A stretch of 55,438 nucleotides of DNA from positions 1-55,438 of the forward strand of contig DATCJO010000210.1 in NCBI GenBank assembly GCA_036562765.1, given 5' to 3'. The notes below the pieces were generated by a model. That model saw nothing but the letters and a program-made list of their open reading frames with translations, did not search any database and had not been told where the DNA came from. Made by a program: the position numbers and the translations under genes. Source of the DNA: Tissierellaceae bacterium. Its GTDB lineage: Bacteria; Bacillota; Clostridia; Tissierellales; Tissierellaceae. The first letter of the stretch is position 1. Each line of letters opens with the position of its first letter. Positions 3,945 through 44,786 of this stretch are shown here, piece after piece.

Positions 3945-3976
3945 GAATACCAGTGTTTTCACTGGTATTTTTGTTT
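3945..3976 (+). terminator. Rho-independent terminator.
   Basis: Hairpin GAATACCAGTG-TTTTC-ACTGGTATT followed by a T-run. Confidence 0.6.
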
Positions 3977-6327: not shown

Positions 6328-7059
6328 TTAGATAATTTCCACATCAGCCTTTAATTTATATATTACATTTTTTCTCTCAACTATGATGGTTACTTTTTTT
6401 GAAAGCTCTTCATTTTCTTTAATTTTTAAGAGCAGTTCTCTGTTTGGGTTTATTGCAATGGGGTTGCCTACTATTTTTAACATAGATAAATCCCCTGCTG
6501 TATCTCCATAGGCATAGCTTGATTTTAAGTCAATATCATATTTCTGTATAAATTCAGTTATTGTATTATGTTTATTTTCTGAATCCCACATTTTCTTTAT
6601 CTTACCAGTAAAGTTGTTGTTTTCATCTACAAAATAAGTTGTACCCCTGTATTCTGTTGCTCCATATTTTTCAGCCATTTTGGATACAAGAAAATCAGGG
6701 CTTCCAGATATGAAGAATATCTTATGACCGTTTTCATGATGCCATTTTATCCTATCCCTTGAGTATTTATAAACCATATCTCCATTTAAATTAATTACTT
6801 GAGAAGCAATAAATTCAATATAAGATTTATTTACTCCCTTTAGGACATCTACATATACTTTTCCTAGGGCATCTATATAATCATCAAAATCTCCATATCT
6901 TTTTTCCCATTCATCGTAGATAGGCTTTATTTTATACCAAATGGAAGGATCAATGACTTCATATTTAATGAGTTTTTTGAAGTGTTCTATCATCAGTGAA
7001 TTTCTAAATATTGTTCCGTCAATATCAAAGAACGCCCCTATATTGCCCATTTTTATCAC
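6328..7059 (-). CDS. HAD-superfamily hydrolase, subfamily IB.
   Basis: The N-terminal motif FFDIDGTI is HAD motif I. Confidence 0.75.
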   Translation of the reverse strand: MIKMGNIGAFFDIDGTIFRNSLMIEHFKKLIKYEVIDPSIWYKIKPIYDEWEKRYGDFDDYIDALGKVYVDVLKGVNKSYIEFIASQVINLNGDMVYKYSRDRIKWHHENGHKIFFISGSPDFLVSKMAEKYGATEYRGTTYFVDENNNFTGKIKKMWDSENKHNTITEFIQKYDIDLKSSYAYGDTAGDLSMLKIVGNPIAINPNRELLLKIKENEELSKKVTIIVERKNVIYKLKADVEII

Positions 7060-7128
7060 CTTATAAATATTATTTTTGATATTATATACTATCTCCCCAT
7101 TATCAGTAAAGATAAATATTTAATGTAA

Positions 7129-8025
7129 GTGGGTATTATATTTATAACAAAAATTCGAGAGGATGATTTGATGTCGAAATATCATATGAGCCCAAATATT
7201 TATGTAAATGAAATAATGCTAAAAGTTGTGGATATAAAGAAATCCAAGGAATTCTATACAAATATCATGGGATTTAAAATCTTAAAAGAAGATGAGAAAA
7301 GAGTTGTATTTTCAGCAGATGGTAAAAATCCAATAGTAACAATAGTTGAACCTGAAAATCCAATACCAAAGCCTCCAAGAAGAACAGGCCTTTACCATTT
7401 TGCAATACTTTTGCCAAGTAGAAAAGACTTAGGGCTATTGTTAAATCATCTTAAGGAAAATAACTACCCAATTGTTGGCGGTGCATACCATGGAGTCAGC
7501 GAAGCAGTGTATTTGCAGGACGTGGATAATAATGGGATTGAAGTCTACAGAGATTTAGATGACAGCCTTTGGGACAGAGAAAATGGTGAAATAAGGATGG
7601 TGACAGAACCTTTAAACTATAAAGAAATTATGGAATTAGCTGAGGGAGAAAAGTGGCACGGGATACCAGAAGGGACTATAATAGGCCATATTCACCTTCA
7701 TGTAAGTGATTTAGATGAAGCCAAAAGATTTTACTGTGATGGCCTTGGGTTTAATTTAATTACTTCCATGGGAGATTCTGCCATATTTTTATCTTCTGGC
7801 GGATACCATCACCATATAGGACTAAATACATGGCAGGGGAAAGGAGCTTTGCCACTACCAGAAAATTCTGCTGGAATGAAGTACTTTAGTTTGGTCTTTC
7901 CTAATGAAGAAATTAGAGGGGAAAAGATAAAAAATTTAAGGGAACTTGGATATGAAGTAATTGAAAATGCAGAAGGTATATTTGTCAAGGACTCTTCAGA
8001 GAATTTAATTAAACTGGCAGTGTAA
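7129..8025 (+). CDS. VOC (glyoxalase/bleomycin-resistance/extradiol-dioxygenase) family protein with two domains.
   Basis: 298 aa. The two beta-alpha-beta-beta-beta halves resemble Bacillus MhqA/CatE-like ring-cleaving dioxygenases. Confidence 0.65.
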   Translation: MGIIFITKIREDDLMSKYHMSPNIYVNEIMLKVVDIKKSKEFYTNIMGFKILKEDEKRVVFSADGKNPIVTIVEPENPIPKPPRRTGLYHFAILLPSRKDLGLLLNHLKENNYPIVGGAYHGVSEAVYLQDVDNNGIEVYRDLDDSLWDRENGEIRMVTEPLNYKEIMELAEGEKWHGIPEGTIIGHIHLHVSDLDEAKRFYCDGLGFNLITSMGDSAIFLSSGGYHHHIGLNTWQGKGALPLPENSAGMKYFSLVFPNEEIRGEKIKNLRELGYEVIENAEGIFVKDSSENLIKLAV

Positions 8026-8057
8026 ATTGCAATAAATCAACAAAAGATGATAAAAAA

Positions 8058-8087
8058 TAGCATCGATATCGATGCTGTTTTTTATTT
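8058..8087 (+). terminator. Rho-independent terminator.
   Basis: Perfect palindrome AGCATCGATATCGATGCT followed by a T-run. Confidence 0.7.
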
Positions 8088-8260
8088 TCAAAAAATTATA
8101 TATTTTAATTCATTAAATGATATTTTTTATAGTCAAATTATTGTGTATTTTGAAATATTTAAGTATTATAAAATTGTATTGGAATTTTGGGGTTTATTTA
8201 ATCTAAAAATCTGAAAACTTTTATTAGCTATTTCTTGCATATGTCTAAAATGAAAGTGGG

Positions 8261-10546
8261 GTGGGTGAGGACATGGTTCTTATTAATAAAAGTTTTACGG
8301 ATAAAATAATAAGCCTGAAAAATCCAAAGCATTTAGAAGAGGAAATGAATCAATTAAAGGAAAATTATTCGTATGTCGAAAAATTCACTAAAATTGGAAC
8401 TTGGACATATTATCCTGATTCAGGGGAGATATTTTGGTCAGAAGAGATTTATCACATACTAGGAATTGATTCTAAGTCTTTAACAAATGGTTTAAAAAGT
8501 TTTAACGAATATATTCATCCAGATGATTTAAAAAAAGTAGCTGAATTTGTAGAAAGTGCCATAAAAGGAAAAGGTTATAATATTGAATTTAGGATTATAG
8601 ATTCCAGTGGCAATTTGAAATTCCTAAAGGCAAGAACAGAGGTTATTTTAGATGATAGCGGAAGAGTTAAAAAAATCATAGGAATAGTTCAGGATATAAC
8701 TGAATCTAGGGAAGTATCTCAAATAGGAGTATCCTACATAACTAGTAGCGATAAATTAATAGGTTTGCCTAGTAGGGTAGACCTATTAGAAAAGTTAAAC
8801 CAGCACTGTACATATCTTAAGTTAGTGAAGAAACACTTTGCATTGATGATGCTGGATGTAAGTGATGTAAAGAATGTAAATTATTCTTTAGGATTTGATG
8901 TAATAGATAGTCTTTTAGATGAAATTTATGAGAGATTAAAAAGTTATTTAGGCCAAGGAGTATATATAAGCAGATATTATGATGATATATTTGCCATCAT
9001 ATTACAAGGCAAAAATGAATTAGGAGATTTTGAAACAATAGGAAAGGGAATTATTAATCAGTTTAAGAAACCATTTAAGATTGATAACTATCAATTCACT
9101 ATAAATGTTAACTTAGGAATATGTTCATATCCAAAAGATGCTGATAAAGCTGAAGATCTAATTAAAAATGCTAGGCTAGCTTTGATTATGGCAAAAAAAG
9201 AAGGCAAGAACTTATGCAGGTTTTATTCTTCAGATATGGAAATGAAATTATATGGGGAATTTGCCTTAAAAAGTGATTTAATCAAAGCTATAAAAGAAGA
9301 ACAATTTATTATCAACTATCATCCAGTAGTAAGTTTAAGTGACAATTCAATATTAGCTGCAGAGGCTTTGTTGAGATGGAACCATCCAGAATGGGGGATA
9401 ATTGGACCTAGCCAATTTATACATCTTGCTGAGGAGACCGGATTAATCGTAGATATTGGGAAATGGGCTTTAAGGGAAGTATGCAGAAACTATAAAAGTT
9501 GGGCAGAAAAAGGGCTGCCTTCAATAAAAGTATCAGTAAACTTTTCGCCAGTTCAATTATATGAAGAGGATTTTGCAGAAAATGTTTTAGGTATAATAAA
9601 GGAATATGGATTAGACCCAAAATTCCTTATTGTAGAAATTACAGAATCTGTTTTACTACAAGATGTTAGCATAATAGTTAGGAATTTAAAAAAGTTGCAA
9701 GCCAATGGTATACAGGTAACAATAGACGACTTTGGTACGTGTTATTCATCCTTAATGTATTTAAACAATTTCAATATTGACATAATAAAAATTGGCCAGT
9801 CCTTTCTTAAGAAAGTTTCTTCAAGTGAAATCAGCAAATCTATTATGAAATTTGTGGTTCAGTTGGCAAAAGAATTGAAAATAAAAGTAATTGCAGAAGG
9901 CATAGAATCCTATGAGCAACTGATGTTTTTGAAAAATATAGGCTGTTACATGGGACAAGGATTTATCTTTGGCGAACCTATCTCAGTGAAGGATTTTGAA
10001 AAAGTCTTGTCTAAAGGCAATATGCAGATAGCAGTTTTCAATGACATAACTGATTTATCTTATGCAGACAGGAGAAAATTCTTCAGAGTAAAATTTATCC
10101 ATTATTTAGAAGCTGATTTAACTGTACAGGAAATCCGAGGAGAAAAAGTTAATGTTGGAAGCACAAAAGTCTTAATAAAAAACATGGGCCCTGGAGGACT
10201 TTGCTTTATATCAAACATAAGATTCCCATCAAGTAAAGATTTGATTTTACAATTTACAACAGAAATGATGGGAGAAGAATTTAAATTTTATGGAAGTCCT
10301 GTTTGGGCTAAGAGGATAAACAAAGAATTAAATGAATATGGATTACAGCTATATGAATATGGTGTAGAATTTACACTTGATGAAAACGAGAGGAAGGAAT
10401 TAATAAAGACCCTTAACAAAGCACAAATTAAGATGAAGCGAAATGAATTATTTGTAGATGGAAGGTTTATTTCCATTACTCATATACAGTATTTTTCTAA
10501 TTTATTAAAAAATAAAGGCAGTGATACAATTAGCAATAATTGTTAA
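8261..10546 (+). CDS. c-di-GMP signalling protein with the domain order PAS, degenerate GGDEF, EAL, then C-terminal PilZ.
   Basis: There is a PAS block (EIFWSEEIYHILGI). RYYDDIF replaces R-x-GGDEF. The EAL domain keeps EALLRW, DDFGTC and EITES, but has KIG where KxD is expected. The C-terminal PilZ motifs RRKFFR and NMGPGGLCF are about 40 aa apart. The more likely start is the ATG at 8273, which sits behind a GAGGA RBS. Confidence 0.85.
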   Translation: MGEDMVLINKSFTDKIISLKNPKHLEEEMNQLKENYSYVEKFTKIGTWTYYPDSGEIFWSEEIYHILGIDSKSLTNGLKSFNEYIHPDDLKKVAEFVESAIKGKGYNIEFRIIDSSGNLKFLKARTEVILDDSGRVKKIIGIVQDITESREVSQIGVSYITSSDKLIGLPSRVDLLEKLNQHCTYLKLVKKHFALMMLDVSDVKNVNYSLGFDVIDSLLDEIYERLKSYLGQGVYISRYYDDIFAIILQGKNELGDFETIGKGIINQFKKPFKIDNYQFTINVNLGICSYPKDADKAEDLIKNARLALIMAKKEGKNLCRFYSSDMEMKLYGEFALKSDLIKAIKEEQFIINYHPVVSLSDNSILAAEALLRWNHPEWGIIGPSQFIHLAEETGLIVDIGKWALREVCRNYKSWAEKGLPSIKVSVNFSPVQLYEEDFAENVLGIIKEYGLDPKFLIVEITESVLLQDVSIIVRNLKKLQANGIQVTIDDFGTCYSSLMYLNNFNIDIIKIGQSFLKKVSSSEISKSIMKFVVQLAKELKIKVIAEGIESYEQLMFLKNIGCYMGQGFIFGEPISVKDFEKVLSKGNMQIAVFNDITDLSYADRRKFFRVKFIHYLEADLTVQEIRGEKVNVGSTKVLIKNMGPGGLCFISNIRFPSSKDLILQFTTEMMGEEFKFYGSPVWAKRINKELNEYGLQLYEYGVEFTLDENERKELIKTLNKAQIKMKRNELFVDGRFISITHIQYFSNLLKNKGSDTISNNC

Positions 10547-10635
10547 CCATTATGTAACTTGATTGTAAATCTAATGTAACCCATTTGGCTTCTATCCTTG
10601 ATATACTTTATATAAAAAGAAATGGGATAGGAGTG

Positions 10636-11721
10636 ATGTATATGAGAAAAATCAAAAAATATGTAGCCATGTCATTGATTTCATCTATGCTAATATTTCC
10701 AGTAGCCTCGATGGCAGAAAATAGTTTAGAAATTCCACCAGACAGCCCAGTAGAAAGCAATATAATCTTAGCACCTATTTCTGAAGAAGTGGATGATATA
10801 ATAAATGAAGTCCAAATTCCGGATTATATTGAATATAGAGGGAAAATTGCTGAAATCGATAAAAAAGGCGATATGGTAAGAATCTGGGTTAAGGATAATT
10901 TAGATGAAGAATTTAATGGAATGCTTTTCTATATAACAGAAGATGTAATCTTGTTGAATGACAAGACTAATGATTTTGCTAAAGCTGAAGAACTTAAAGT
11001 AGGCATGGATGTAACTGGCTATTATCATAAAGAAACAGTTATGGCAATGAGCATGCCTCCTCAATTGGCACCCAATGTAATCGTAATAAATGAAAATAAA
11101 AATCCAAGTTTTATCCGCATATCAAAATTCGATGAAAACCTAATAAGCTCTGAAGGGGATTTAAAACTAAATGTATCTGATGATACTACAATAATAGATA
11201 AAAATGGCAATAAAGTTAATAAGGAAGATATTAAGAATAAGGATTTAATAGTCTTCTACAATATCGTAATGGAAAGCTATCCAGCTCAAACAAAACCTGA
11301 AAAAATTATAGTTTTGGAAAGAAAAGAACAAGTAGCAGATACACCTGAATCAATAGAGTTGCAATTAAATATAGAAGCTTTAGGAAAGATAAACATCAAT
11401 GGAAAAGACATAAAGTTGGACAATGAAATGTTTGAAAATGAAAATGGAATAGTAATGATACCTTTAAGGCAAATAGCAGAAGCTTTAGGATATGAAGTTA
11501 CTTGGGACAATGATGCTAAGAGGATTGAGTTAATAAAGGGACCTCAATATATAACATTAACTATTGGAAAGGATAATTACAGCTTTGCTAAGATGCTAAT
11601 AAATCTTGGAAATGTTCCTGTTGTGAAGGATTCAAGAACTTTTGTACCTTTCGATTTTTTACAAGAAGTAATGAACTTGAAAGTAGAAATAATAGATGGG
11701 GTTATTAACATAACTGAATAA
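10636..11721 (+). CDS. Secreted protein with a C-terminal copper-amine-oxidase N-terminal-like (stalk) domain.
   Basis: Signal peptide MRKIKKYVAMSLISSMLIFPVASMA behind an AGGAG RBS. The C-terminal segment IPLRQIAEALGYEVTWDNDAKRIEL is the Cu_amine_oxidN1-type repeat. The ORF track places the start at 10585. Confidence 0.6.
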   Translation: MYMRKIKKYVAMSLISSMLIFPVASMAENSLEIPPDSPVESNIILAPISEEVDDIINEVQIPDYIEYRGKIAEIDKKGDMVRIWVKDNLDEEFNGMLFYITEDVILLNDKTNDFAKAEELKVGMDVTGYYHKETVMAMSMPPQLAPNVIVINENKNPSFIRISKFDENLISSEGDLKLNVSDDTTIIDKNGNKVNKEDIKNKDLIVFYNIVMESYPAQTKPEKIIVLERKEQVADTPESIELQLNIEALGKININGKDIKLDNEMFENENGIVMIPLRQIAEALGYEVTWDNDAKRIELIKGPQYITLTIGKDNYSFAKMLINLGNVPVVKDSRTFVPFDFLQEVMNLKVEIIDGVINITE

Positions 11722-11730
11722 GCATTTTAA

Positions 11731-11757
11731 GGAGCACTTTATATGTGCTCTTTTTTT
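11731..11757 (+). terminator. Rho-independent terminator.
   Basis: GAGCAC-TTTATAT-GTGCTC followed by T7. Confidence 0.7.
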
Positions 11758-11782
11758 ATATGAGTATATTTCAAAAGGTGAT

Positions 11783-11811
11783 TGTAATATTTTGTCAAAT
11801 ATTGTATAATT
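11783..11811 (+). promoter_or_regulatory. SigA-like promoter.
   Basis: TTGTAA-N17-TATAAT, about 120 nt upstream of the ATG at 11933. Confidence 0.4.
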
Positions 11812-11932
11812 TTCGTAGGTCTTTTGTCCTATTTTAATTAAACTATAATAGTACTATAGTACTAATTTATAGCTTTACTATTTTACATGTAAAATATAGA
11901 GCACCTTACCAAATAAGATTAGAGGTGACGAG

Positions 11933-11995
11933 ATGAAAAACATAATAAAAAAAACATTTAAACCAATAAGGGTATTACAATTAGAAAAAAATTAG
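11933..11995 (+). pseudogene. Detached N-terminal fragment of the downstream PAS-GGDEF-EAL-PilZ gene, separated from it by an apparent -1 indel in an A7 tract.
   Basis: An ATG behind an AGAGGTG RBS encodes MKNIIKKTFKPIRVLQLEKN*. Reading resumes in the adjacent frame as ..KKLEQLKESYIYVQSLIKVGSWIYYVDEDEVFWSEEIYNLLGV, which aligns with the N-terminus of the paralogue at 8261. One extra A in the run at 11985-11991 joins the two frames. Confidence 0.7.
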
Positions 11996-12129
11996 AACAA
12001 CTAAAGGAAAGTTATATTTATGTTCAAAGTTTAATAAAAGTTGGAAGCTGGATATATTATGTTGATGAAGATGAAGTATTTTGGTCAGAAGAAATATATA
12101 ATTTATTAGGAGTTAAATCAAAATCTTCA

Positions 12130-15100
12130 TTGAAAAAATTAGAGGACTTTTATAGATTTGTCCATCCAGAAGATTTAGAAAAAGTAGTAAAATCTATAAG
12201 CAATTCATTTCAAGGAAGGGAATTTGATATTGAGTTTAGAATCATTAATAATAATGGGGATATAAAGTTTTTAAGGGAAAAGGTTAAGGTCATTTTAGAA
12301 GAAAACAAAGTTCAAAAGATAGTCGGAATTATTCAAGATTTAACAGAAAATATGGCTGTAAAAGAAAACTTAAAATTTTTTAGTAGGGATTTAATAGATT
12401 TACAAAGGATTTTGGGGATAGGAGCATGGAGATATAGTTTTAAGGAGAAGAAATTTTACTATACAAATGAGGTATTTAGTATATTAAACATCGAGCAGAA
12501 AGATTTGGGAAATAATTATGAAATGCTGTTAGAACTAATACATCCTCAAGATAAAGCTATAGTTAAAGGTGCCATAAAAAATTATGTCGCTGGTGATGCT
12601 ATTGATATAGAGTTTAGGATATTGGAAAATGATGGTACATATAAGTATGTTAAAGCAAAAGGAGAACCTCAATATGACAAAAATGGGGAATTAGTTGAAT
12701 TATTTGGGATACTACAGGATATAACAGATAGTAAAGTATTAGAGGAAAAAATTAACACAGTAAATGATATCGCTTTAAAGGTAGAGAACCTTGCTCATGT
12801 TGGAAGCTGGCAAATGAATTTGGAAAATAAAGAGTTGATTCTTTCAAAAGAAGCTATGAAAATCTATGGGATTAATCCTGTTAAATTTGACAATAGCTAT
12901 GAAGAATTTCTAAAAAGAGTTCATCCAGAAGACCAACATATTTTTAATGACATATTAGATAATCCACCTAATAATCCTTGTAGTTTAGAATACAGGTTTT
13001 TAAAGCCAGATGGTTCAATTAGTTATATATATCATAGGATTGATTTTATTTTTAATGAAAAAAACAAGCCAGTTTTTGTATATGGAGTTATTCATGACAT
13101 TACAGAATATAAGGAATTAAAAAGCAAGCTGAAAGAAGAGCATATTGAAAGAATAAAACTGGAAAAGAAATATGAAACACTGATTCAAGGTTCTAATGAT
13201 GTCTTTGAAATTTTGGATAAGGATGGAACTACTATATATGTTAGCGATGCAGTTGAAAGGGTTATTGGCTATACAGTTAAGGAGAAATTAGGGAGAAAGC
13301 CATGGGAATTTTTTGACGGAAAAGAAGCTGAAAATGTAAAAAATATAGTTCTAATGTCATTATCTAGTCCTAACAAAAGGATTATAGAGAATTTCCCACT
13401 TAAAAGAAAAGATGGGCAAAAAGTTCATATTGAAGTTAGCATACAAAATCTACTTAATAATTCTAGTATTGAAGGTATAGTATTAAGTTACAGGGATATA
13501 ACAAAAACAATAGAAACTGAGAAAAAAATGTCCTTTATGTCTACCCATGATAAATTAACAGGGCTTCCTAATAATATTTTTTTTATGAAAAAATTAAGGC
13601 AGCAGTGTGAATATGCTAATGAGAATAAAAAGCCCTTTGCATTGATGATGTTGTATATTGATGGAATAAAAGACATAGCTTATTCTTTTGGCTATGAAAC
13701 AGAGGAACAACTATTAATAAATGCAGTTGAGAGAATAAAGGATTATTTAGGGGAAGAAACTTTTATAAGCAGATATCATGATGACCTTTTTGCTATTATA
13801 GTCCATGGCATGAAGGATTTGGGGGATTATGAAACAATTGGAAAGGGAATTATAAAGCAATTTATGTATCCTTTTAAAGTAGAAAGTTATGATTTTGATT
13901 TAGGTGTTAATTTAGGCATATCAATATATCCTAAAGATGCTGAAGGTTATGAATCTTTGATAAGGAATGCAAATCTTGCTTTAATTAGAGCAAAAAAAGA
14001 GGGGAAAAATGTACAGAGATTTTATTCTTCTGATTTAGATATAAAAAGCTATAGGGAATTTATTTTAAAAAGCGACTTGCACAGGGCTATTAGTGAAAAT
14101 CAATTACGCATATATTATCAGCCAATTGTAAGGTTAAATGATAATAATATTTTAGCTGCAGAAGCCCTTTTAAGATGGAATCATCCAGAATGGGGGATAA
14201 TATTCCCTTCTGATTTTATACACCTTGCTGAAGAAACTAGATTAATTATTGATATAGAAAGATGGACTTTAAAGGAAGTCTGTAAAAATTACTGTGAATG
14301 GATTAAAAATGGATTGCCATCTATTAAAGTTTCTGTTAATTTTTCACCTATACAATTTTATGAAGAGAATTTTGTTGATGATATTTTAGATATAATAAAC
14401 CAGTATGAATTAAATCCAGATTTCCTTATTATAGAAATTACTGAATCTACTTTCTTAAAGAATCAAGATACTATAATTAAAAATTTAAAGAAACTTAAAT
14501 CCCATGGGATACAAATTGCCATAGATAATATAGGGAAGGGATATTCTTCCTTGCTATATTTAAGCAGTTTTAATGTTGATATAGTAAAAATTGATAAATC
14601 ATTTACAGGAAATATTTCATTAAATGAAAACAATAAATCTATAATAAAACTCATCGTTAATGTTGCAAGGGAACTTAAAATAAAGCTAGTTGCAGAAGGA
14701 ATAGAAACAGTTGAAGAATTATTGTATTTAAAGAGCATAAATTGCTATACAGGCCAAGGTTTTATTTTTAGCAAACCATTAGAGGTAGAGGATTTTGAAA
14801 AACTATTAAAAGAAGGGAATGTAAAATCTGTATTATTTAAAGATTTGGCGAATGTACCTTTTGCAGAAAGAAGGAAATTCTTTAGGATTAATTTCCTACA
14901 ATTATTGGAAGGAGATTTGACAGTACAAGAAATTCGAGGGAAGAAAATCAATGTAGGAAATACAAAAATACTTATTAAGAATTTAGGTCCTGGAGGTTTG
15001 TGTTTTATATCAAACATAAGATTTCCAGTTGAAAAGGATATTGTCTTACAGTTTACCACTGAACTTGTAGGTAAAGAACTTAAAGTATATGGCTACCCTG

Positions 15101-15342
15101 TATGGAGTAAAGAAATAAAAAGCAATCTATATGAGTATGGGATAAAGTTATATGAGTATGGTGTGGAATTTTCTGTTGATGAAAATGAAAGAATGGAGTT
15201 AATAAGGGAATTGAATAAGGTACAGATAAAGATGAAAAAGAATGAGCTATTTGGAGAAGGCAGATTTATTTCTGGTACTTATGTCCAGTATTTTGCTGAT
15301 TTAAATAAAAATATGAATGAAAAAAGATTAAGTAATAGTTAA
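12130..15342 (+). CDS. c-di-GMP signalling protein with about four PAS domains, a degenerate GGDEF, an EAL and a C-terminal PilZ. The real 5' end is probably at 11933 across the frameshift.
   Basis: There are multiple PAS blocks. RYHDDLF replaces the GGDEF motif. The EAL domain has EALLRW, EITEST and KID, but DNIGKG where DDFGTG is expected. The PilZ motifs are RRKFFR and NLGPGGLCF. It is a paralogue of 8261..10546. The track start at 12130 is a TTG inside the first PAS domain. Confidence 0.85.
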   Translation: MKKLEDFYRFVHPEDLEKVVKSISNSFQGREFDIEFRIINNNGDIKFLREKVKVILEENKVQKIVGIIQDLTENMAVKENLKFFSRDLIDLQRILGIGAWRYSFKEKKFYYTNEVFSILNIEQKDLGNNYEMLLELIHPQDKAIVKGAIKNYVAGDAIDIEFRILENDGTYKYVKAKGEPQYDKNGELVELFGILQDITDSKVLEEKINTVNDIALKVENLAHVGSWQMNLENKELILSKEAMKIYGINPVKFDNSYEEFLKRVHPEDQHIFNDILDNPPNNPCSLEYRFLKPDGSISYIYHRIDFIFNEKNKPVFVYGVIHDITEYKELKSKLKEEHIERIKLEKKYETLIQGSNDVFEILDKDGTTIYVSDAVERVIGYTVKEKLGRKPWEFFDGKEAENVKNIVLMSLSSPNKRIIENFPLKRKDGQKVHIEVSIQNLLNNSSIEGIVLSYRDITKTIETEKKMSFMSTHDKLTGLPNNIFFMKKLRQQCEYANENKKPFALMMLYIDGIKDIAYSFGYETEEQLLINAVERIKDYLGEETFISRYHDDLFAIIVHGMKDLGDYETIGKGIIKQFMYPFKVESYDFDLGVNLGISIYPKDAEGYESLIRNANLALIRAKKEGKNVQRFYSSDLDIKSYREFILKSDLHRAISENQLRIYYQPIVRLNDNNILAAEALLRWNHPEWGIIFPSDFIHLAEETRLIIDIERWTLKEVCKNYCEWIKNGLPSIKVSVNFSPIQFYEENFVDDILDIINQYELNPDFLIIEITESTFLKNQDTIIKNLKKLKSHGIQIAIDNIGKGYSSLLYLSSFNVDIVKIDKSFTGNISLNENNKSIIKLIVNVARELKIKLVAEGIETVEELLYLKSINCYTGQGFIFSKPLEVEDFEKLLKEGNVKSVLFKDLANVPFAERRKFFRINFLQLLEGDLTVQEIRGKKINVGNTKILIKNLGPGGLCFISNIRFPVEKDIVLQFTTELVGKELKVYGYPVWSKEIKSNLYEYGIKLYEYGVEFSVDENERMELIRELNKVQIKMKKNELFGEGRFISGTYVQYFADLNKNMNEKRLSNS

Positions 15343-15443
15343 ATCTAACAATTAACCATTTAATTGAATTTTAAGAAACATCCATTAGTCAATGTGGCAT
15401 GAAAATTTTTCAAGAGTTTTTTAGCATATTTTAAATGAAAAAA

Positions 15444-15490
15444 AGAGGATAAATGGAGGTATGTCCATTTGTCCTCTTTTATTTATTAAA
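15444..15490 (+). terminator. Rho-independent terminator.
   Basis: AGAGGATAAATGGA / TCCATTTGTCCTCT followed by a T-run. Confidence 0.65.
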
Positions 15491-15643
15491 ATATGAACAC
15501 TGGACTAAAAAATGCAATAAATACAGTATATAAAAATTACTTATATAAACATAGTTAACTATTGATAAAAACAATTGGCTGATATTTTTCTATGATGATA
15601 CACTTTTAATATAAACAAATATTAGACAATATGGAGGGATAAT

Positions 15644-16807
15644 ATGAGGCCAAAGGTAATGGAGGAAATTGAGGCCTTAAGGGGCGTCAATTCTGCAAAG
15701 GTAAAGGAAGCCCATGAAGCAGGGAAAAAAGTGGTAGGCATGTATTGTGTATTTTCACCTTCTGAAATTGCATTGGCAGCAGGGGCCATACCCGTTAGCT
15801 TGTGTGGAACAGTTCAAGAGCCAATAGAAGAAGCTGAAAAAGTATTGCCAAGGAATCTATGCCCACTGATTAAGTCTAGTTATGGCTTTGCAATTACTGG
15901 GAAATGTCCATATTTCTATTTTTCAGATGTAATAGTTGCAGAAACTACTTGTGATGGGAAGAAAAAGATGTATGAACTCATGGGTGAATTGAAGCCTGTT
16001 CATGTGATGAATCTTCCACAAACAGCAGAAGGTGAGGATTCCCTAGAAATGTGGAAGAAGGAGATAGTCAGACTTATAAAATTCTTAGAAGAACAGTTTG
16101 ACGTAGAAATTACAGAAGAAAAACTTAGAGATGCAATAAAGTTAATGAATAGAGAAAGAGATGTAATGAGGAGATTACATAAATTAAATGCCCACAAGCC
16201 AGCACCATTATCAGGGATTGACATGATGCTTGCTCAATGGATAAAGGGATTTAACGTAGACAAGGAAGCAGGCATAGAATTAATAGAAAGATTAATAGAA
16301 GAAGTTGAAGAACAAATAAGGCAGGGAATTTATGCCTTTGATGAAAAGGCACCAAGAATATTGTTAACAGGATGTCCAATAGGCTTAGGCTCTGAAAAGG
16401 TATTGAGAGCATTAGAAGAAGCTGGCGCTTCAGTTGTTGCCCTTGAAAACTGCACAGGATATAAGGGATTAGATGTAATGGTAGATGAAGATAAGGACCC
16501 AATTACTGCCATAGCAGAAAAATATCTTAAAACTCCTTGCTCATGTATGACACCAAACAATAGAAGGCTTGATTTAATAAAGAGGTTAGCTGAAGAATAT
16601 CAAGTTGACGGAGTAGTGGATTTGACATGGCAGGCATGCCATACATATAATATTGAATCCTATACAGTAAAGAAATTTGTAGAAGAAGAGTTGAAACTTC
16701 CATTTATGCAAATAGAAACTGATTACTCTGATTCGGATACAGGGCAAGTTAAGGTAAGGGTGGAAGCCTTCTTGGAAACTATAGAAATACCTGCAACTAC
16801 AAATTAG
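15644..16807 (+). CDS. 2-hydroxyacyl-CoA dehydratase (HgdB/HadC) family protein of the double-cubane-cluster-protein type.
   Basis: 387 aa and Cys-rich. It matches the HgdB-like fold family and is immediately followed by its ATPase activase. Confidence 0.65.
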   Translation: MRPKVMEEIEALRGVNSAKVKEAHEAGKKVVGMYCVFSPSEIALAAGAIPVSLCGTVQEPIEEAEKVLPRNLCPLIKSSYGFAITGKCPYFYFSDVIVAETTCDGKKKMYELMGELKPVHVMNLPQTAEGEDSLEMWKKEIVRLIKFLEEQFDVEITEEKLRDAIKLMNRERDVMRRLHKLNAHKPAPLSGIDMMLAQWIKGFNVDKEAGIELIERLIEEVEEQIRQGIYAFDEKAPRILLTGCPIGLGSEKVLRALEEAGASVVALENCTGYKGLDVMVDEDKDPITAIAEKYLKTPCSCMTPNNRRLDLIKRLAEEYQVDGVVDLTWQACHTYNIESYTVKKFVEEELKLPFMQIETDYSDSDTGQVKVRVEAFLETIEIPATTN

Positions 16808-16812
16808 TAAGG

Positions 16813-17577
16813 ATGATAAAAATGCATTATATAGGCATAGACATAGGTTCCACTGCATCTAAAGTATCTATTTTCAATGATAATGAATTAATATTGAATT
16901 TTGTTATGCCAACAGGGTGGAACAGCAAGGAAACTTCGCTGGTAATAGAAAAAAAGCTGGCAGAAAACGGGATAGATTTAGAAAGATCAAAGGTTGTGGC
17001 CACTGGTTATGGCAGGGTCTCTGTGCCATACGCCAATAAAACAGTAACGGAAATAACCTGCCACGGAAAAGGAGCATACTACCTTTTGGGGAAAGATGCC
17101 ACAGTTATAGACATTGGTGGGCAAGATACTAAAATAATTACCTTAGAAAATGGCAAAGTCACCAATTTTACCATGAACGATAAATGCGCAGCTGGTACAG
17201 GCAGGTTTTTAGAGCTGATGGCAAACACTCTAGGCGTAAGCATAAAGGAATTATCGGATATGGCTTTGCTAGGAGAAGATATAAATATTACAAGCATGTG
17301 CACTGTATTTGCTGAATCGGAAGTTATTAGCCTTATAGGCAATGGGACTAACAAGGAAAGCATTGCAAGGGGAATACTTAATTCAATAACCGGAAGGGTT
17401 TATTCAATAGCTTATAAGCATGGCATAAAAGGAACAGTGTTTTTAACAGGTGGGTTATGTGAAATAGATTCCTTTGTTAATATGCTTTCAAAAAAACTTG
17501 GAGTGACTGTAGAAACCAATCCTTTAGCAAGATATGCAGGTTCCATAGGTGCTGCACTACAAGCTAAGAATATATAA
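16813..17577 (+). CDS. Acyl-CoA dehydratase activase (BadF/BadG/BcrA/BcrD ATPase family, HgdC-like).
   Basis: MHYIGIDIGSTASKVSIF is the ASKHA-fold phosphate-1 motif. Length is 254 aa and a C-terminal Cys for the bridging cluster is present. Confidence 0.85.
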   Translation: MIKMHYIGIDIGSTASKVSIFNDNELILNFVMPTGWNSKETSLVIEKKLAENGIDLERSKVVATGYGRVSVPYANKTVTEITCHGKGAYYLLGKDATVIDIGGQDTKIITLENGKVTNFTMNDKCAAGTGRFLELMANTLGVSIKELSDMALLGEDINITSMCTVFAESEVISLIGNGTNKESIARGILNSITGRVYSIAYKHGIKGTVFLTGGLCEIDSFVNMLSKKLGVTVETNPLARYAGSIGAALQAKNI

Positions 17578-17580
17578 AAA

Positions 17581-17613
17581 AACCATAGTGGCAACTCACT
17601 ATGGTTTTTGTTT
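17581..17613 (+). terminator. Rho-independent terminator.
   Basis: AACCATAGTG-GCAACT-CACTATGGTT followed by a T-run. Confidence 0.7.
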
Positions 17614-17703
17614 ATTAAATTTTACATTGGGTATAGTAATGATAAAAGGGAATAATAATATATCCATATACATATTTATAGTATATGAGAAAGGAGATAT
17701 GTT

Positions 17704-18321
17704 ATGGATAAAGTTAAGTTAGCTATAATTTATTATAGTGCAACAGGTATAAATTATCAATTAGCAAAAATGGCAGAAGAAGGTGCCCTTGAAGCAGGTG
17801 CTGAAGTTAGAGTTAGGAAAGTTCCAGAATTAATACCTGAAGAAGTAATTAATAATAATCCTGCTATGAAGGCAAATGCAGAAGCAACCAAGGATGTTCC
17901 AGTAGCCACTGGTGATGATTTAGTCTGGGCAGATGCTATAATATTTAGTGCACCAACAAGATTTGGTAATGTAGCATCTCAAATGAAGAATTTCTTAGAT
18001 ATGCAAGGTGGGCTCTGGGCACAAGGCAAGTTAATGAATAAAGTAGTATCTGCAATGTCATCTGCTCAAAACCCACACGGTGGTCAAGAAGCCACAGTAA
18101 AGGCTATTTACACATCTTTAATGCACTGGGGTGCAATCATAGTTCCACCAGGATATACTGATGAGTCGATATTTAAAGCAGGTGGAAACCCCTATGGAAC
18201 AACTGTTACTCAAGGACCTGATGGCAAGATGGTAGAAGATGTAAAAGAAGCAGTTAAACATCAAGCAAAGAGAACTGTAGAAGTTGCTAGATGGATTAAA
18301 AAAGGTAGGGAAAGCCAATAA
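17704..18321 (+). CDS. wrbA: NAD(P)H:quinone oxidoreductase, WrbA-type flavodoxin-like.
   Basis: KLAIIYYSATGINYQLAK is the N-terminal FMN-binding loop. Length is 205 aa. Confidence 0.8.
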   Translation: MDKVKLAIIYYSATGINYQLAKMAEEGALEAGAEVRVRKVPELIPEEVINNNPAMKANAEATKDVPVATGDDLVWADAIIFSAPTRFGNVASQMKNFLDMQGGLWAQGKLMNKVVSAMSSAQNPHGGQEATVKAIYTSLMHWGAIIVPPGYTDESIFKAGGNPYGTTVTQGPDGKMVEDVKEAVKHQAKRTVEVARWIKKGRESQ

Positions 18322-18324
18322 ATA

Positions 18325-18355
18325 AACATCACCTGTTTAGGTGATGTTTTATTTT
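18325..18355 (+). terminator. Rho-independent terminator.
   Basis: AACATCACC-TGTTTAG-GTGATGTT followed by a T-run. Confidence 0.65.
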
Positions 18356-18450
18356 ATGTAGTTTAATACATGATTTACTATCTAGTTTTTTTTCATTAAA
18401 AATATATAATATTATATATTAACTTAATTAAAAACAAAGGGGGATAAAAG

Positions 18451-19359
18451 ATGGAAGTAGCTTTAGTAGCGAAACAAGTAGGAGTACTTGCAGTACTTAT
18501 GGCCATTGGGTATGTAGGAACAAAGAAAAATATCATAGATGAAAACGTATCAAAAGGATTGGCCAATATACTTACCAGCATAGCTTTACCTGCATTTTTG
18601 ATTTCTTCATTTAACATAACTTATTCCGAAGAAACCTTAAAGGGGATATTGCTAGTATTTATATATTCCTTAGGAATACATATCTTAAATGCTGTTATCA
18701 CCAAATTTCTATATATAAAATATAATAATGGGAAAAATGCAGTCATAAGGTTTGGTACTATATTTGGAAACTGCGGTTTTATAGGACTGCCTATGATTTA
18801 TGAATTGTTTGGTCAGGAAGCCACACTTTATGGTTCTGTGTTTTTGATACCCTATCATATGGTTTTATGGAGTTATGGCGAAAGCTTGCTGGCAAAGGAT
18901 AAAGGAGATTCTCCATTAAAGAAGTTAATTAAAAATCCGTCTCTAATAGCAATAGCAATAGGGATTGTTTTATTTGTACTTAATATACAGCTGCCCTATG
19001 CACTATCGAAGTCCTTTTCAATGTTGGGTTCACTTACTTCCCCTATATCAATGCTGATTTTAGGTGAAAAAATAACAAAATTGAAATTTAAGGAAATGAT
19101 AAAGGATAAGGACATATACTATGGCTGCTTTGTTAAGCTCATTGTCCTTCCTGTTGTTACTTTAGGCGTCATGCTTTTAATTAAAGCGCCTGAACTTATT
19201 AGAAATATAATGGTATTTATGCAATCACTACCTGTGGCCATATTGCTTGTTGTTCTTACTCAAAAACATGAAGGGGAAATTGAATTCGCTTCTAAGTTTG
19301 CGATAATATCTCATATATTTTGTGTAATTACAATACCCTTGATATCTTTGCTTTTGTAA
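18451..19359 (+). CDS. Auxin-efflux-carrier (AEC) family membrane transporter.
   Basis: 302 aa with about 10 TM segments and the AEC-like two-repeat topology. Confidence 0.7.
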   Translation: MEVALVAKQVGVLAVLMAIGYVGTKKNIIDENVSKGLANILTSIALPAFLISSFNITYSEETLKGILLVFIYSLGIHILNAVITKFLYIKYNNGKNAVIRFGTIFGNCGFIGLPMIYELFGQEATLYGSVFLIPYHMVLWSYGESLLAKDKGDSPLKKLIKNPSLIAIAIGIVLFVLNIQLPYALSKSFSMLGSLTSPISMLILGEKITKLKFKEMIKDKDIYYGCFVKLIVLPVVTLGVMLLIKAPELIRNIMVFMQSLPVAILLVVLTQKHEGEIEFASKFAIISHIFCVITIPLISLLL

Positions 19360-19467
19360 GCTGTTAGAAATTAACTGTTAAACTAGAAATTAAATTTGAT
19401 AAAAAAATATTTATCTTGGGTACTAATTAATCATAAGTAAATACATTTTAGCTAGGAGGTACGGTAA

Positions 19468-20658
19468 ATGGGATTAATTAAAGCATTTGCATCAGCCATA
19501 GGCGGGTCATTGGCGGACCAATGGCTAGAGGTAATAGAACCAGACAACATGAGCGATACTACAGTAATGACTAAGGGTGTAAAGGTAAGAAAAAACGATA
19601 GAAGAGGTTCCAATAAAAAAGGTACTGAAGATACAGTATCAAATGGCTCAATCATTCATGTATATCCAAACCAATTTATGATGTTAGTAGATGGAGGAAA
19701 AGTTGTAGATTTTACTGCAGAAGAAGGTTATTATAAGGTAGATAACTCAAGCCTTCCATCCTTGTTTAGCGGAAGTTTTAAAGATGCTTTGAAGGAATCC
19801 TTTGAAAGAGTAAAATATGGCGGAGTAACCCCTACCTTACAAAAGGTGTATTACATAAATTTACAGGAGATAAAGGGAATAAAGTTTGGGACTCCAAATC
19901 CTCTAAATTATTTTGACAACTTTTATAATTCAGAGCTTTTTTTGCGTGCATTTGGTACTTATTCCATCAAGATAACTGATCCATTGTTATTTTTTAGGGA
20001 AGTAGTACCTAAGAATAAGGATAAAGTAGATATTGAGGATATCAACGAACAGTTTTTATCAGAATTCCTTGAAGCTTTACAAGCTGCACTAAACCAAATG
20101 TCAGCTGATGGAATTCGCATATCCCACGTGCCTTCAAAAAGCAGGGAATTAAGCAAATACATGGCAGATATCTTAGATGAGGACTGGAAGCGAATGAGGG
20201 GCATAGAAATCCAATCAGTAGGAATTGCAAGCATTAGCTACGATGAAGAATCTAAGGAACTAATCAATATGAGAAATAAAGGTGCAATGCTTGGAGACCC
20301 TGTTATAAGAGAAGCTTATGTACAAGGGTCTATTGCAAGGGGTTTGGAAGCAGCAGGTTCCAATGAAGGAGGTTCTGCCACTGCCTTTATGGGAATGGGA
20401 ATTGGCATGCAAAGTGCAGGGAATTTCATGACAGCTGCTTCTCAGTCAAATCAAAAGCAGATGGAAATGGAAAGTGCGAAGGAAGAAAAGACTTCTAAAA
20501 AGCAGTGGTTTTGTCCAAATTGTGGAACAAAAAACTTTGGGAATTTCTGTACAGAATGTGGGACTAAAAGGCCAGATGCTAACAGGTGCCCTAATTGCGG
20601 TTATGAAATAAATGGACCTACACCAAAATTCTGTCCAGAATGTGGCCATAAATTCTAG
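19468..20658 (+). CDS. SPFH/band-7-like protein with a C-terminal double zinc-ribbon (COG4260-type, like B. subtilis YdjI).
   Basis: Strong AGGAGG RBS. The N-terminus reads MGLIKAFASAIGGSLADQW. The C-terminus carries CPNCG..CTECG..CPNCG..CPECG ribbons. Confidence 0.6.
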   Translation: MGLIKAFASAIGGSLADQWLEVIEPDNMSDTTVMTKGVKVRKNDRRGSNKKGTEDTVSNGSIIHVYPNQFMMLVDGGKVVDFTAEEGYYKVDNSSLPSLFSGSFKDALKESFERVKYGGVTPTLQKVYYINLQEIKGIKFGTPNPLNYFDNFYNSELFLRAFGTYSIKITDPLLFFREVVPKNKDKVDIEDINEQFLSEFLEALQAALNQMSADGIRISHVPSKSRELSKYMADILDEDWKRMRGIEIQSVGIASISYDEESKELINMRNKGAMLGDPVIREAYVQGSIARGLEAAGSNEGGSATAFMGMGIGMQSAGNFMTAASQSNQKQMEMESAKEEKTSKKQWFCPNCGTKNFGNFCTECGTKRPDANRCPNCGYEINGPTPKFCPECGHKF

Positions 20659-20668
20659 AGGTGGTTAT

Positions 20669-21685
20669 ATGCCTATTAAATCCTATAAATGCCCCAGCTG
20701 TGGGGCTCCAATTTCATTTAACCCGGAATTAAATAAGTTTAAATGCGAGTACTGCTTAAAGGAATATACTGTGGAGGAAATAGAAAAATATAATCAAGAA
20801 GAAGTACATGGAGAAGGGGAATTTGTCTCTTATCACTGCAACAACTGCGGTGCTACTGTAGTAACTGATGACACGACTACCGCCACATTCTGCTACTACT
20901 GCCACAGCCCTGTAATCATATCTAGTAGGTTGAAGCAATTTAAACCAGATAAGATGATTCCGTTTTCCATAGATAAGGAAACTGCAAGAAAAAAGTTTTT
21001 AGACTGGGCTGGTAAGAAGAAGTTTGTTCCTGATGATTTTTACAGTGAGTCCCAGTTGGAAAAGATAACAGGGATTTACTTGCCATACTGGTGGGCCAAT
21101 TGTAAATTAGATTTTGATTATGTTGGGGAAGGAATAAATATAAGGGTATGGCGTGTTGGAGATAGGGAATATACGGAAACGAAGAAATATGAAATAGTAA
21201 GAAGAGGAAATGTAGATGTAAATAATATTGGGGAATTAGCCTTTACTAAAATAGATAAATCCCTGTTGGATGGAATACAGCCATATAATGAAAAAGAGGT
21301 AAAAAAATTTTCAATGCCTTATCTATCAGGCTTTTTTGCAGAACAATATGATGTAGAAAAAGAAAAAGTTGCACCTAAGATTGAAGAAAAGATAAAAAGC
21401 TATGCAAGAAATGTTATTGACCAGTCTATTTCGGGATATAGTACAGTTCGTGAAAAGAAAAAGGATTTTAGGATGTCAATTAAAAATTGGAGTTATACAT
21501 TACTTCCTGCATGGATTTTAACTTATATTTACAAGGGGAAGACCTATGTATATGCAGTTAACGGGCAGACAGGCAAATCCTTTGGAGAACTACCTTTCTG
21601 TAAAGAGAAGGCCTTGAAGGCATCAGGTATTGTATTTGCCATTACCTTTGTAATTTTATTGTTAGGGGGATGGCTAATATGGTAG
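20669..21685 (+). CDS. Zinc-ribbon protein with a C-terminal TM segment, YdjG-like.
   Basis: It has CPSCG..CEYC and CNNCG..CYYC ribbons plus a C-terminal TM. The likely start is the ATG at 20669 behind an AGAGGTGG RBS. The track places the start at 20612. Confidence 0.5.
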   Translation: MPIKSYKCPSCGAPISFNPELNKFKCEYCLKEYTVEEIEKYNQEEVHGEGEFVSYHCNNCGATVVTDDTTTATFCYYCHSPVIISSRLKQFKPDKMIPFSIDKETARKKFLDWAGKKKFVPDDFYSESQLEKITGIYLPYWWANCKLDFDYVGEGINIRVWRVGDREYTETKKYEIVRRGNVDVNNIGELAFTKIDKSLLDGIQPYNEKEVKKFSMPYLSGFFAEQYDVEKEKVAPKIEEKIKSYARNVIDQSISGYSTVREKKKDFRMSIKNWSYTLLPAWILTYIYKGKTYVYAVNGQTGKSFGELPFCKEKALKASGIVFAITFVILLLGGWLIW

Positions 21686-29079: not shown

Positions 29080-29152
29080 TGGGCGGTATAGGGCTCGAAC
29101 CTACGACTTCCACCATGTCAAGGTGGTACTCTACCAGCTGAGTTAACCGCCC
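29080..29152 (-). tRNA. tRNA-Val, anticodon GAC.
   Basis: On the minus strand it reads GGGCGGTTAACTCAGCTGGTAGAGTACCACCTTGACATGGTGGAAGTCGTAGGTTCGAGCCCTATACCGCCCA. This folds as a cloverleaf with a 7/7 acceptor stem, a TTCGAGC T-loop and the anticodon loop TTGACAT. CCA is not encoded. Confidence 0.8.
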
Positions 29153-41761: not shown

Positions 41762-41924
41762 CTGATGAAGGGGGCTGGTTTTCATTTACAACATACACAA
41801 TGACCTAAAGGAGAAAATTAGCAGCTTAAACGACCTATTATACGAAAAATACAATACCATATTTTCTCAAGATAGAGAGTTTTTAAGAACGTTTATAAGA
41901 CAATATATCGGGCAAATTAAACCC

Positions 41925-42773
41925 ATGGAAAAGCTTGATAATAAGCATCTTGCTTTATATGAGGCAAAAGGTGGTATTGTTGGAGTAGATGGATCTACAA
42001 ACAGAGTAGGTGGAAGTTACCCTCACTTTGTAGAAGTCTTTCAAGGTTTAGCCAAATCCACTTTAATGAAGGACGAGCCTATCTATAAGGCAGATATTTA
42101 TTCCCCACTGTTTTCAAATATTCAAAAGAATGTTTTGGAAGAAGACGAAAAGAAGGAAATAGAAACTAAAAACAGATTATTATCTGACATTGAGGTAAAA
42201 GTTGCATTGGAGGCTGTAAAAAGATATAAGCCCTTTGGAGTATTAATGGATGGTTCATTAATTAGATACTATATATATTCCTATGATTTATGGATGCAGT
42301 TAAGAAGTGAATGTGAAGAAAAAGGTATTATACTTGTAGGAGTTATAAAGGATATAAAAACAACGATAATAGGCGACAAGCTTGGCGACGTTTACCCACA
42401 ATTTAGGATAAATGCCTATGACAGGGAGCTGTTGTTTGGAATATTAGATTATGGGGAAGTAATAATCATTGATGATGATGTAAACAGCAAGAAGAAATCA
42501 GGATATTCGTCTGTTTTCATGAGGTCTTCACGATCCCCAGCAGTTATTGGAATGGATATAATAGACAGTCAAAAGGATTATTTGGAAGAAATGAGTAGAC
42601 TTATCTTTACTTTGACACCAGAAAACAGCAGAGGAGTACCTTTATGGCTTGATTTGGTAGATAAGGAAGTCCAAATTTCCGATGCCCTAATGAAGGGATT
42701 GCTTGAAAGGTACTTGGACAGGGGCTTATATGAAAGATTTTTCGTATCAGAAAGAGCTAAAAGAACTTTATAA
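41925..42773 (+). CDS. NurA-like nuclease (RNase-H-like fold). The 5' end is uncertain because the frame stays open upstream to about 41769.
   Basis: 282 aa. There are two DGS motifs (GIVGVDGS and VLMDGSL) plus acidic clusters, as in NurA motifs. It sits directly upstream of a HerA-like ATPase. Confidence 0.5.
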   Translation: MEKLDNKHLALYEAKGGIVGVDGSTNRVGGSYPHFVEVFQGLAKSTLMKDEPIYKADIYSPLFSNIQKNVLEEDEKKEIETKNRLLSDIEVKVALEAVKRYKPFGVLMDGSLIRYYIYSYDLWMQLRSECEEKGIILVGVIKDIKTTIIGDKLGDVYPQFRINAYDRELLFGILDYGEVIIIDDDVNSKKKSGYSSVFMRSSRSPAVIGMDIIDSQKDYLEEMSRLIFTLTPENSRGVPLWLDLVDKEVQISDALMKGLLERYLDRGLYERFFVSERAKRTL

Positions 42774-44766: not shown

Positions 44767-44786
44767 GTACCAGGGTGGTAATACTC

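Follow-up and report, generated by a model that had tools for sequence, protein, structure and literature searches.

Length changes of homopolymeric tracts switch genes in and out of frame at the contingency loci of Campylobacter, Neisseria, Haemophilus and Helicobacter. Genes for the turnover of cyclic dimeric GMP (c-di-GMP) are also known to be hit repeatedly: the EAL phosphodiesterase genes PDE2 (rtn) and PDE3 were lost by frameshift or nonsense mutation in the adaptation of Yersinia pestis, and the wrinkly spreaders of Pseudomonas fluorescens reportedly make use of mutational hotspots in PAS-GGDEF-EAL genes such as mwsR. A shifted frame can be read through as well, either by programmed -1 ribosomal frameshifting, as in dnaX and in insertion sequence (IS) elements, or by transcriptional slippage rescue at poly(A) tracts. 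Phase variation through homopolymeric tracts and other simple sequence repeats has been described in general terms (PMC8115180), and the c-di-GMP phosphodiesterases PdcB and PdcC of Clostridioides difficile vary in phase through invertible DNA (PMC9286219). Here we describe a locus on a contig of 55,438 nt from a Tissierellaceae bacterium (DATCJO010000210.1, assembly GCA_036562765.1; the whole stretch is called the window), where the second of two tandem genes for PAS-GGDEF-EAL-PilZ proteins is split by a frameshift in a run of seven A residues (A7) near its 5' end. The length of this run differs among assemblies of the same species while comparable runs nearby stay constant, and an A8 allele with an intact gene exists. 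That the frameshift is real biology we hold with high confidence. Probably it is a null allele at a slippage hotspot, in a population where two tandem c-di-GMP genes are inactivated again and again.

Similar to the homopolymeric contingency loci, a mononucleotide run at the 5' end of the coding region changes its length in a manner that fits slipped strands, moves the frame in or out and differs among near-identical strains. Position, polymorphism and tract specificity are the features of a phase-variable locus found here. Unlike at those loci, the run is short (8), is made up of AAA, the more frequent of the lysine codons here, in a genome rich in AT, and is absent from a sister species, and the gene as well as its paralogue bear irreversible lesions. 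Furthermore, the run is found in an environmental anaerobe that has not been cultured, and what it affects is a signalling enzyme inside the cell instead of a surface structure. The nearest functional precedent is PdcB/PdcC, likewise a case of ON/OFF heterogeneity of a c-di-GMP phosphodiesterase in an anaerobic Firmicute, for which effects on many c-di-GMP-controlled traits are expected. However, that switch is an upstream invertible element worked by site-specific recombination, whereas here a poly(A) run lies within the coding sequence, with neither inverted repeats nor a recombinase. With the Y. pestis and mwsR cases the locus has in common that c-di-GMP turnover genes repeatedly acquire null or altered alleles, which are tolerated or favoured, and that mutation-prone sites bias which allele arises. 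Those are fixed species differences or results of laboratory evolution, whereas the alleles described here coexist in natural metagenomes and the commonest of them is a potentially reversible tract change.

All features of the locus lie on the forward strand. A Shine-Dalgarno-like AGAGGTG (11921-11927) can be read from the sequence, followed after a 5-nt spacer by the ATG at 11933-11935. According to three-frame translation, the open reading frame (ORF) starting there has 20 codons, MKNIIKKTFKPIRVLQLEKN*, and ends at a TAG at 11993-11995. The -1 frame, preceded by a TAA at 11959-11961, is free of stop codons from 11962 up to the stop at 15340-15342 and reads ..KKLEQLKESYIYVQSLIKVGSWIYYVDEDEVFWSEEIYNLLGV. 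This gene body (11962-15342) comprises 1126 codons, is otherwise intact and encodes four PAS domains, a degenerate GGDEF domain (HDDLF), an EAL domain and a PilZ-like C-terminus. Since the TAA and the TAG bound it, the frame change is confined to 11962-11992, and the sole repeat within this segment is the A7 run at 11985-11991. Another run, an A8 at 11947-11954 (codons 5-8), was considered as the site of the shift and ruled out by the TAA at 11959-11961, which belongs to the long frame; it serves below as a matched control. If one A is added to the A7 run, the computed ORF has 1136 aa and zero internal stop codons. In this in-frame state, GAA AAA AAA, the run is an A8 and occupies codons 18-20. 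When all ATG, GTG and TTG codons of the long frame itself are considered, the earliest is the TTG at 12130, with a product of 1070 aa. An earlier inspection of the window by its letters, here called the sequence-only reading, had given the same frames, ribosome-binding site and coordinates (ATG 11933, the frame from 11962, A7 at 11985-11991), all of which were reproduced by our reading and translation. Its suggestion of a -1 indel in the A run, with about 1136 aa encoded by the A8 state, agrees with three independent assemblies of the same species that carry A8 together with that 1136-aa protein.

Six intact relatives have N-termini to which the 20-aa leader can be aligned, the invariant L17 and E18 included, and residues 1-19 of the 1136-aa proteins P0122, P0127 and P0130 are the same as in the leader. 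The alignment with the intact relatives argues that the ATG at 11933 is the ancestral start; the ancestral start and its first 20 codons (11933-11995) would thus be present in the A7 allele, with the TAG cutting the ORF early. The surroundings of this predicted start point in the same direction. Besides the Shine-Dalgarno-like sequence there is a terminator-like hairpin with a T-run at 11729-11753, which ends the upstream gene for a copper amine oxidase N-domain protein and is the sole such site in 11600-12400 (mean of shuffled sequences 0.1). It is followed by a promoter-like site, TTGTAA-17-TATAAT, at 11782-11810. The latter is a consensus match only (10 of 12 positions), and as 10 promoter-like matches were found versus 5.4 expected in this AT-rich region, many such matches occur by chance. 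Upstream of the gene no Rfam family of a riboswitch or leader RNA was detected at gathering thresholds; elsewhere in the window only a T-box and a tRNA were found.

A comparison of the orthologous tract in related strains had been named in the sequence-only reading as a check, and it revealed all three lengths, A7, A8 and A9. We compared the DNA of 11 related loci, nine of which cover the tract, so that together with the window ten assemblies are available. A7 occurs five times: in the window, L005 (ENA ERZ27245370), L006 (Logan SRR21993106), L007 (JGI 3300010281) and L009 (Logan SRR23005575). A8 was found three times, in L001 (Logan SRR21993105), L002 (ENA ERZ651803) and L003 (JGI 3300012949), and A9 twice, in L004 (Logan SRR28388799) and L008 (Logan SRR31334607). 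The surroundings of the tract in the nine loci equal the window sequence, the run length being the sole difference. Only A8 is in frame (ON; 1136 aa); A7 leads to a product of 20 aa and A9 to a leader ORF of 44 aa, both OFF. The A8 proteins P0122, P0127 and P0130, all of 1136 aa, come from ERZ651803, SRR21993105 and 3300012949, and P0127 is identical to the repaired protein of the window. The protein cluster at 90% identity holds 14 distinct sequences, namely three of 1136 aa, one of 1096 aa (NCBI), five of 1070 aa and five of 602-604 aa. Over the DNA, the first eight sequences compared are more than 99.8% identical, with 22 columns of single-nucleotide polymorphisms (SNPs) in 13.4 kb.

In the orthologue of a sister species (1139 aa, 66% identity) the A run is missing, and the corresponding site reads AGATTAGAGGATGAATTA. 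In a metagenome contig collection, which evidently lacks the species, 0 matches were obtained with a gapped pattern for the region of the tract or with a fixed 38-mer beside it. Neither the 38-mer nor peptide patterns from the N-terminal 548 aa yielded a relative in a genome contig collection, which thus offered no GTDB species representative for comparison.

The variation is specific to the tract. We surveyed 54 homopolymers (A/T of at least 6, G/C of at least 5) in 6900-21342 and checked each in every assembly covering it. Four vary in length: one at 8530 in the paralogue, the focal tract, and those at 13522 and 15320 in the focal gene, whereas 50 of the 53 homopolymers other than the focal tract are invariant. 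All four variable runs are inside the two PAS-GGDEF-EAL-PilZ genes (P=0.028; this and the following P-values treat the assemblies as independent, ignoring shared ancestry, and hence are upper bounds on significance). The most direct control is the A8 31 nt upstream, which varies in 0 of 10 assemblies versus 7 of 10 at the focal tract (Fisher P=0.0015). No change of length was seen in the T8 at 13577 among 12 sequences or in the intergenic T8 at 18386 among 8, and intergenic A7 and T7 runs are constant in length, too. Given a background rate of deviant calls of 0.8%, the probability of seven departures from A8 in ten is about 3e-13. Because tract lengths vary among near-identical loci while these controls stay fixed, we regard the A7 as a real, recurrent slipped-strand allele.

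According to the mechanism we propose, one A would be lost from A8 by slipped-strand mispairing at replication, giving A7. Translation from the ATG at 11933 would then halt after 20 residues, and the OFF allele would yield no product. The tract would be a slippage hotspot in wild populations, in which ON and OFF cells or strains are mixed. SNP haplotypes show how often this may have happened. There are two main groups, {L002, L003, L005, L007} and {window, L001, L004, L006}, besides a lineage with a large deletion {L008-L011}. Both A7 and A8 are present in each main group, A9 occurs in the second, and A7 and A9 are found in the deletion lineage. On a clonal reading at least four tract changes are most parsimonious, and the strict minimum is two because of SNP homoplasy. 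As far as these haplotypes can tell, reversion and parallel loss fit alike. The adjacent runs SRR21993105 (L001) and SRR21993106 (L006), presumably from one study, belong to the same SNP lineage in the left flank; L001 is ON (A8) with a frameshifted paralogue, L006 is OFF (A7) with a doubly frameshifted one.

Besides the tract changes, the gene and its tandem paralogue gather irreversible lesions in some lineages. An out-of-frame deletion of 725 bp (12729-13453) removes residues ~266-508, that is PAS3 and most of PAS4, in L008-L011, and is common to the four runs SRR31334607, SRR23005575, SRR17422360 and SRR23005582. Judged from its sequence, the gene should be permanently dead in this lineage. 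Within the gene, the A7 run at 13522-13528 is an A6 in L008, and the A6 run near the stop codon (15320-15325) is an A7 in L009 (P0125), where the C-terminus is altered. The paralogue is hit at 8318 (A5 to A4, L001), 8530-8536 (A7 to A6, L006 and L008), 9456 (1-nt deletion, L006) and 9959 (nonsense, G567 to stop, L008), so that both paralogues are broken in L006 and L008. The window allele has a single lesion and the remainder of its 3.3-kb frame is intact; the alleles of L008 and L009 carry two to three lesions each. The two c-di-GMP genes, 39% of the region, contain all seven indel and deletion sites (P about 0.0015), among them the non-homopolymer ones at 8318 and 9456 and the 725-bp deletion. 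No indel was found outside these genes in ~14 kb and up to 12 sequences. The sister species has a lesion of its own: in assembly L012 (SRR3499603) an A6 to A5 frameshift in GGDEF (~3950-3973, relative to L013) splits the gene into 688 + 450 aa, and P0133 ends in a shifted peptide identical to that of L012, at the protein level only. Among the SNPs, the ratio of non-synonymous to synonymous changes is 9:5 in the paralogue, 8:5 in the focal gene and 7:2 in the gene between them, compared with a total of 1:3 in the four SNP-carrying genes to the right. These counts are small and would fit a weaker constraint on the three-gene cluster.

What would be lost with the gene can be judged from its domains. 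Pfam matches in the long frame are PAS_3 (three times), PAS/PAS_9, GGDEF, EAL (5.6e-74) and a sub-threshold PilZ. In alignment to 5m3c and MorA (4rnh), the EAL motifs EALLR, SVN, EITES, KIDKS, AEGIET and QGF are kept. In this gene only, DDFGTG is changed to DNIGKG (~14515-14535, residues ~862-868 of the 1136-aa protein), the second metal-site Asp being an Asn. At this position the motif is DDFGTC in the paralogue, DDFGIG in the sister species and DDFGTG in relatives that are more distant. The change may indicate a weakened phosphodiesterase activity or a relaxed constraint, and EAL phosphodiesterase activity is plausible but uncertain. At the GGDEF active site, where 5m3c has GGDEF, the motif is HDDLF in the focal gene, YDDIF in the paralogue and YDDLF in the sister species. 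Because it is degenerate in the gene, the paralogue and the relatives, diguanylate cyclase activity is not expected. The PilZ-like C-terminus scores 21.5 bits against the Pfam cut-off of 22.5; it contains RRKFFR, while its second motif is NLGPGG where (D/N)xSxxG is expected. Taken by its domains, the product would be a PAS-controlled c-di-GMP phosphodiesterase or binding protein. The tandem paralogue (8261-10546, 761 aa) has PAS, degenerate GGDEF, EAL and PilZ-like domains and is intact in the window. Compared with the focal protein, it is 58% identical in GGDEF-EAL-PilZ and 46% identical in the N-terminus together with PAS1, and the likeness of both N-termini pointed out in the sequence-only reading is thereby confirmed.

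Several observations weigh against our reading. Lysine is encoded by AAA in 60% of cases here and two successive lysines by AAAAAA in 41%, and given this codon usage such an A run can arise by chance. The neighbouring A8 should slip equally, and its invariance exceeds what the mutation rate alone explains. For a dedicated switch an A8 is short, lying at the short end of the known ones. Homoplastic SNPs at 8077, 10842 and 13494 stem from recombination or from a chimeric consensus, and the tract lengths themselves are consensus calls of assemblies.

The alternative closest to our reading is an evolved contingency locus, in which the poly(A) run is a selected, reversible switch of a c-di-GMP phosphodiesterase for sessile/motile bet-hedging. 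The tract lies at the 5' end of the coding region, its three length states each occur in at least two samples, and ON and OFF alleles are found on each main haplotype background. Five OFF alleles outside the deletion lineage are free of a second lesion in 3.3 kb. Changes occurred at the focal tract and not at the equal A8 31 nt upstream; such a concentration is expected if OFF alleles must revert there, because stop codons block compensation elsewhere. Moreover, the ON-state gene (3.4 kb) carries three of the six A/T runs of at least 8 in the 55-kb contig (11947-11954, 11985-11991 and 13577-13584; binomial P=0.004, post hoc), one of which varies in length. Phase variation of a c-di-GMP phosphodiesterase is documented for another anaerobe of the class Clostridia, by a different mechanism (PMC9286219). 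However, reversion was not seen and the trees fit parallel loss equally well. The tract is absent from the sister-species orthologue, which gives no sign of selective maintenance, and an A8 at the short end of the known switches is what codon usage would yield by chance. The 725-bp deletion, the nonsense codon and the frameshifts are irreversible and suit plain loss better than regulated switching. A limited literature search, in which absence is not proof, found no published case of a GGDEF or EAL gene, or of any other gene for a c-di-GMP enzyme, that contains a repeat-tract switch. Altogether, a selected switch appears possible but doubtful.

A sequencing or assembly error would mean that the true genome has A8 and that the A7 of this third-party metagenome-assembled genome is an artefact. 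Homopolymers are the classic sites of indel errors, and L006 (SRR21993106) has two further single-base deletions. Nevertheless, an error is unlikely because A7 was obtained again in four further assemblies (ENA, JGI and Logan) and two more have A9, while the matched A8/T8 and the intergenic runs stay constant in length. Indels are furthermore restricted to the two paralogous genes, with none in the other 61% of the region, and the flanking genes have essentially one length on 16-42 contigs each. For instance, the HGD-D gene is a single sequence on 33 contigs and the eight CuAO_N sequences all have 359 aa. The paralogue cluster, in contrast to these, has 24 distinct members, and the 15 listed include fragments of 88, 249, 283, 285 and 375 aa. 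This pattern appears to fit real mutations under selection, as an error process would not respect gene boundaries. The sequence-only reading had left open a homopolymer error, pseudogenisation and slipped-strand variation. The first of these is opposed by the recurring A7 and A9, the second holds for the part of the population with the 725-bp deletion, and a slipped-strand polymorphism is supported. Its worry about assembly quality in general, raised by a G5 tract at the NurA gene, is not supported either, since indels are absent outside the two genes and the same NurA call of 282 aa is made on 37 contigs.

It is slightly less probable still that the frameshift is harmless and that the A7 allele makes a working protein from TTG 12130, ATA 12052 or ATT ~12016. 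The long frame is otherwise intact, and the product from the TTG would retain PAS2-4, GGDEF, EAL and PilZ. Other gene callers use this TTG (12130-12132; 1070 aa). As the sequence-only reading had stated, it is the first conventional start and lies inside PAS1: it is residue 67, 18 residues into the PAS_3 match (49-134, numbered as in the 1136-aa protein), and the nearest AGGAG is 17 nt upstream and thus poorly spaced. NCBI annotates a product of 1096 aa (HEY8363880.1, beginning MYYVDEDE), flagged neither as frameshifted nor as a pseudogene, from a codon that by our computation is the ATA at 12052-12054. ATA is not an established start here, lacks a Shine-Dalgarno sequence and has no support beyond the annotation; it is a work-around that hides the frameshift. 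The promoter-like site, the Shine-Dalgarno sequence and the leader homology all favour the ATG at 11933, and the intact relatives, single ORFs of 1118-1139 aa, all keep the N-terminal segment. The search for an internal promoter or start that could serve a short isoform yielded nothing beyond weak consensus matches, in DNA that is rich in AT. Public databases consequently hold three different 'proteins' for one broken gene, and neither the 1096-aa (ATA) nor the 1070-aa (TTG) product is likely to be the real one.

Programmed recoding of the A7 allele to full length, by -1 ribosomal frameshifting at A_AAA_AAT (11986-11992) or by transcriptional slippage, can practically be dismissed: the A AAA AAT in the frame of ATG 11933 fits X XXY YYZ where two overlapping frames join, as in the dnaX/IS type, adjoins the stop codon and has a weak Shine-Dalgarno-like AAGGG 13 nt upstream, but, unlike in that type, a stimulatory structure is lacking (the next 80 nt fold with -8.3 kcal/mol versus -7.8 +/- 2.2 for shuffled sequences, z=-0.24), and the out-of-frame arrangement is not conserved, with in-frame A8 alleles in the species, an A9 that needs the opposite shift and a sister species without the run. 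Appreciable slippage of RNA polymerase needs runs of about 9 or more, so that an A7 should give trace rescue only. Some trace rescue may occur, likelier for A9 than for A7, and nothing suggests programming.

Other features of the contig were noted as well. The NurA gene (41925-42773, 282 aa) has a G5 run at 41771-41775 upstream, just after an ATG at 41765. When one G is removed, this ATG joins the NurA frame and adds 53 residues (41765-41927), and the restored N-terminus MKGLVFIYNIHNDLKEK.. matches homologues of 328-336 aa (e.g. MPKGVVYIYSIHDDLKDK..). The 37 contigs with the 282-aa form come from NCBI, JGI, Logan and ENA, and the longer form is absent from its cluster. Since the shorter form recurs to this extent, the G5 state is not a defect of the window assembly; it looks fixed in the species, either as a fixed 5' frameshift or with an unusual start. 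NurA stands in a row with genes for a HerA-like ATPase (42919-44766) and a dCache-GGDEF-HD-GYP protein (44775-47009), the latter being the third c-di-GMP gene on the contig. An ordinary T-box leader (48357-48585; Rfam RF00230, 128.9 bits) precedes the gene for methionyl-tRNA synthetase (48724-50670), and the tRNA is at 29080-29152 on the minus strand. Contigs made by different assemblers begin at nearly one genomic position, with the focal gene starting at 11856 in both ENA contigs (L002 and L005) versus 11933 in the window, which suggests a repeat or another assembly-breaking element just left of the window.

With respect to method, real polymorphism could be told apart from homopolymer error without recourse to reads, by setting one tract against matched controls in independent assemblies from public sources. 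If the change at the tract were reversible and selected, slipped-strand phase variation would join the inversion switches of c-di-GMP phosphodiesterases in Clostridia. As a tentative possibility, this would then be the first c-di-GMP turnover enzyme with phase variation through a repeat tract, and allele frequencies in public metagenomes alone would have revealed it. On the reading we prefer, a null allele at a slippage hotspot, the loss of two c-di-GMP genes would be recurrent and tolerated or favoured, with the poly(A) run as the easiest and in principle reversible route. The consequence would be the loss of a sensor-controlled c-di-GMP phosphodiesterase or receptor, and local c-di-GMP as well as sessile/motile behaviour may shift. 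Across about a dozen metagenomes the two tandem paralogues bear at least eight distinct disabling lesions next to length-invariant neighbours, and most of the null alleles come from the single poly(A) run. Genes of c-di-GMP turnover can rank among the most mutationally dynamic genes of a wild population.

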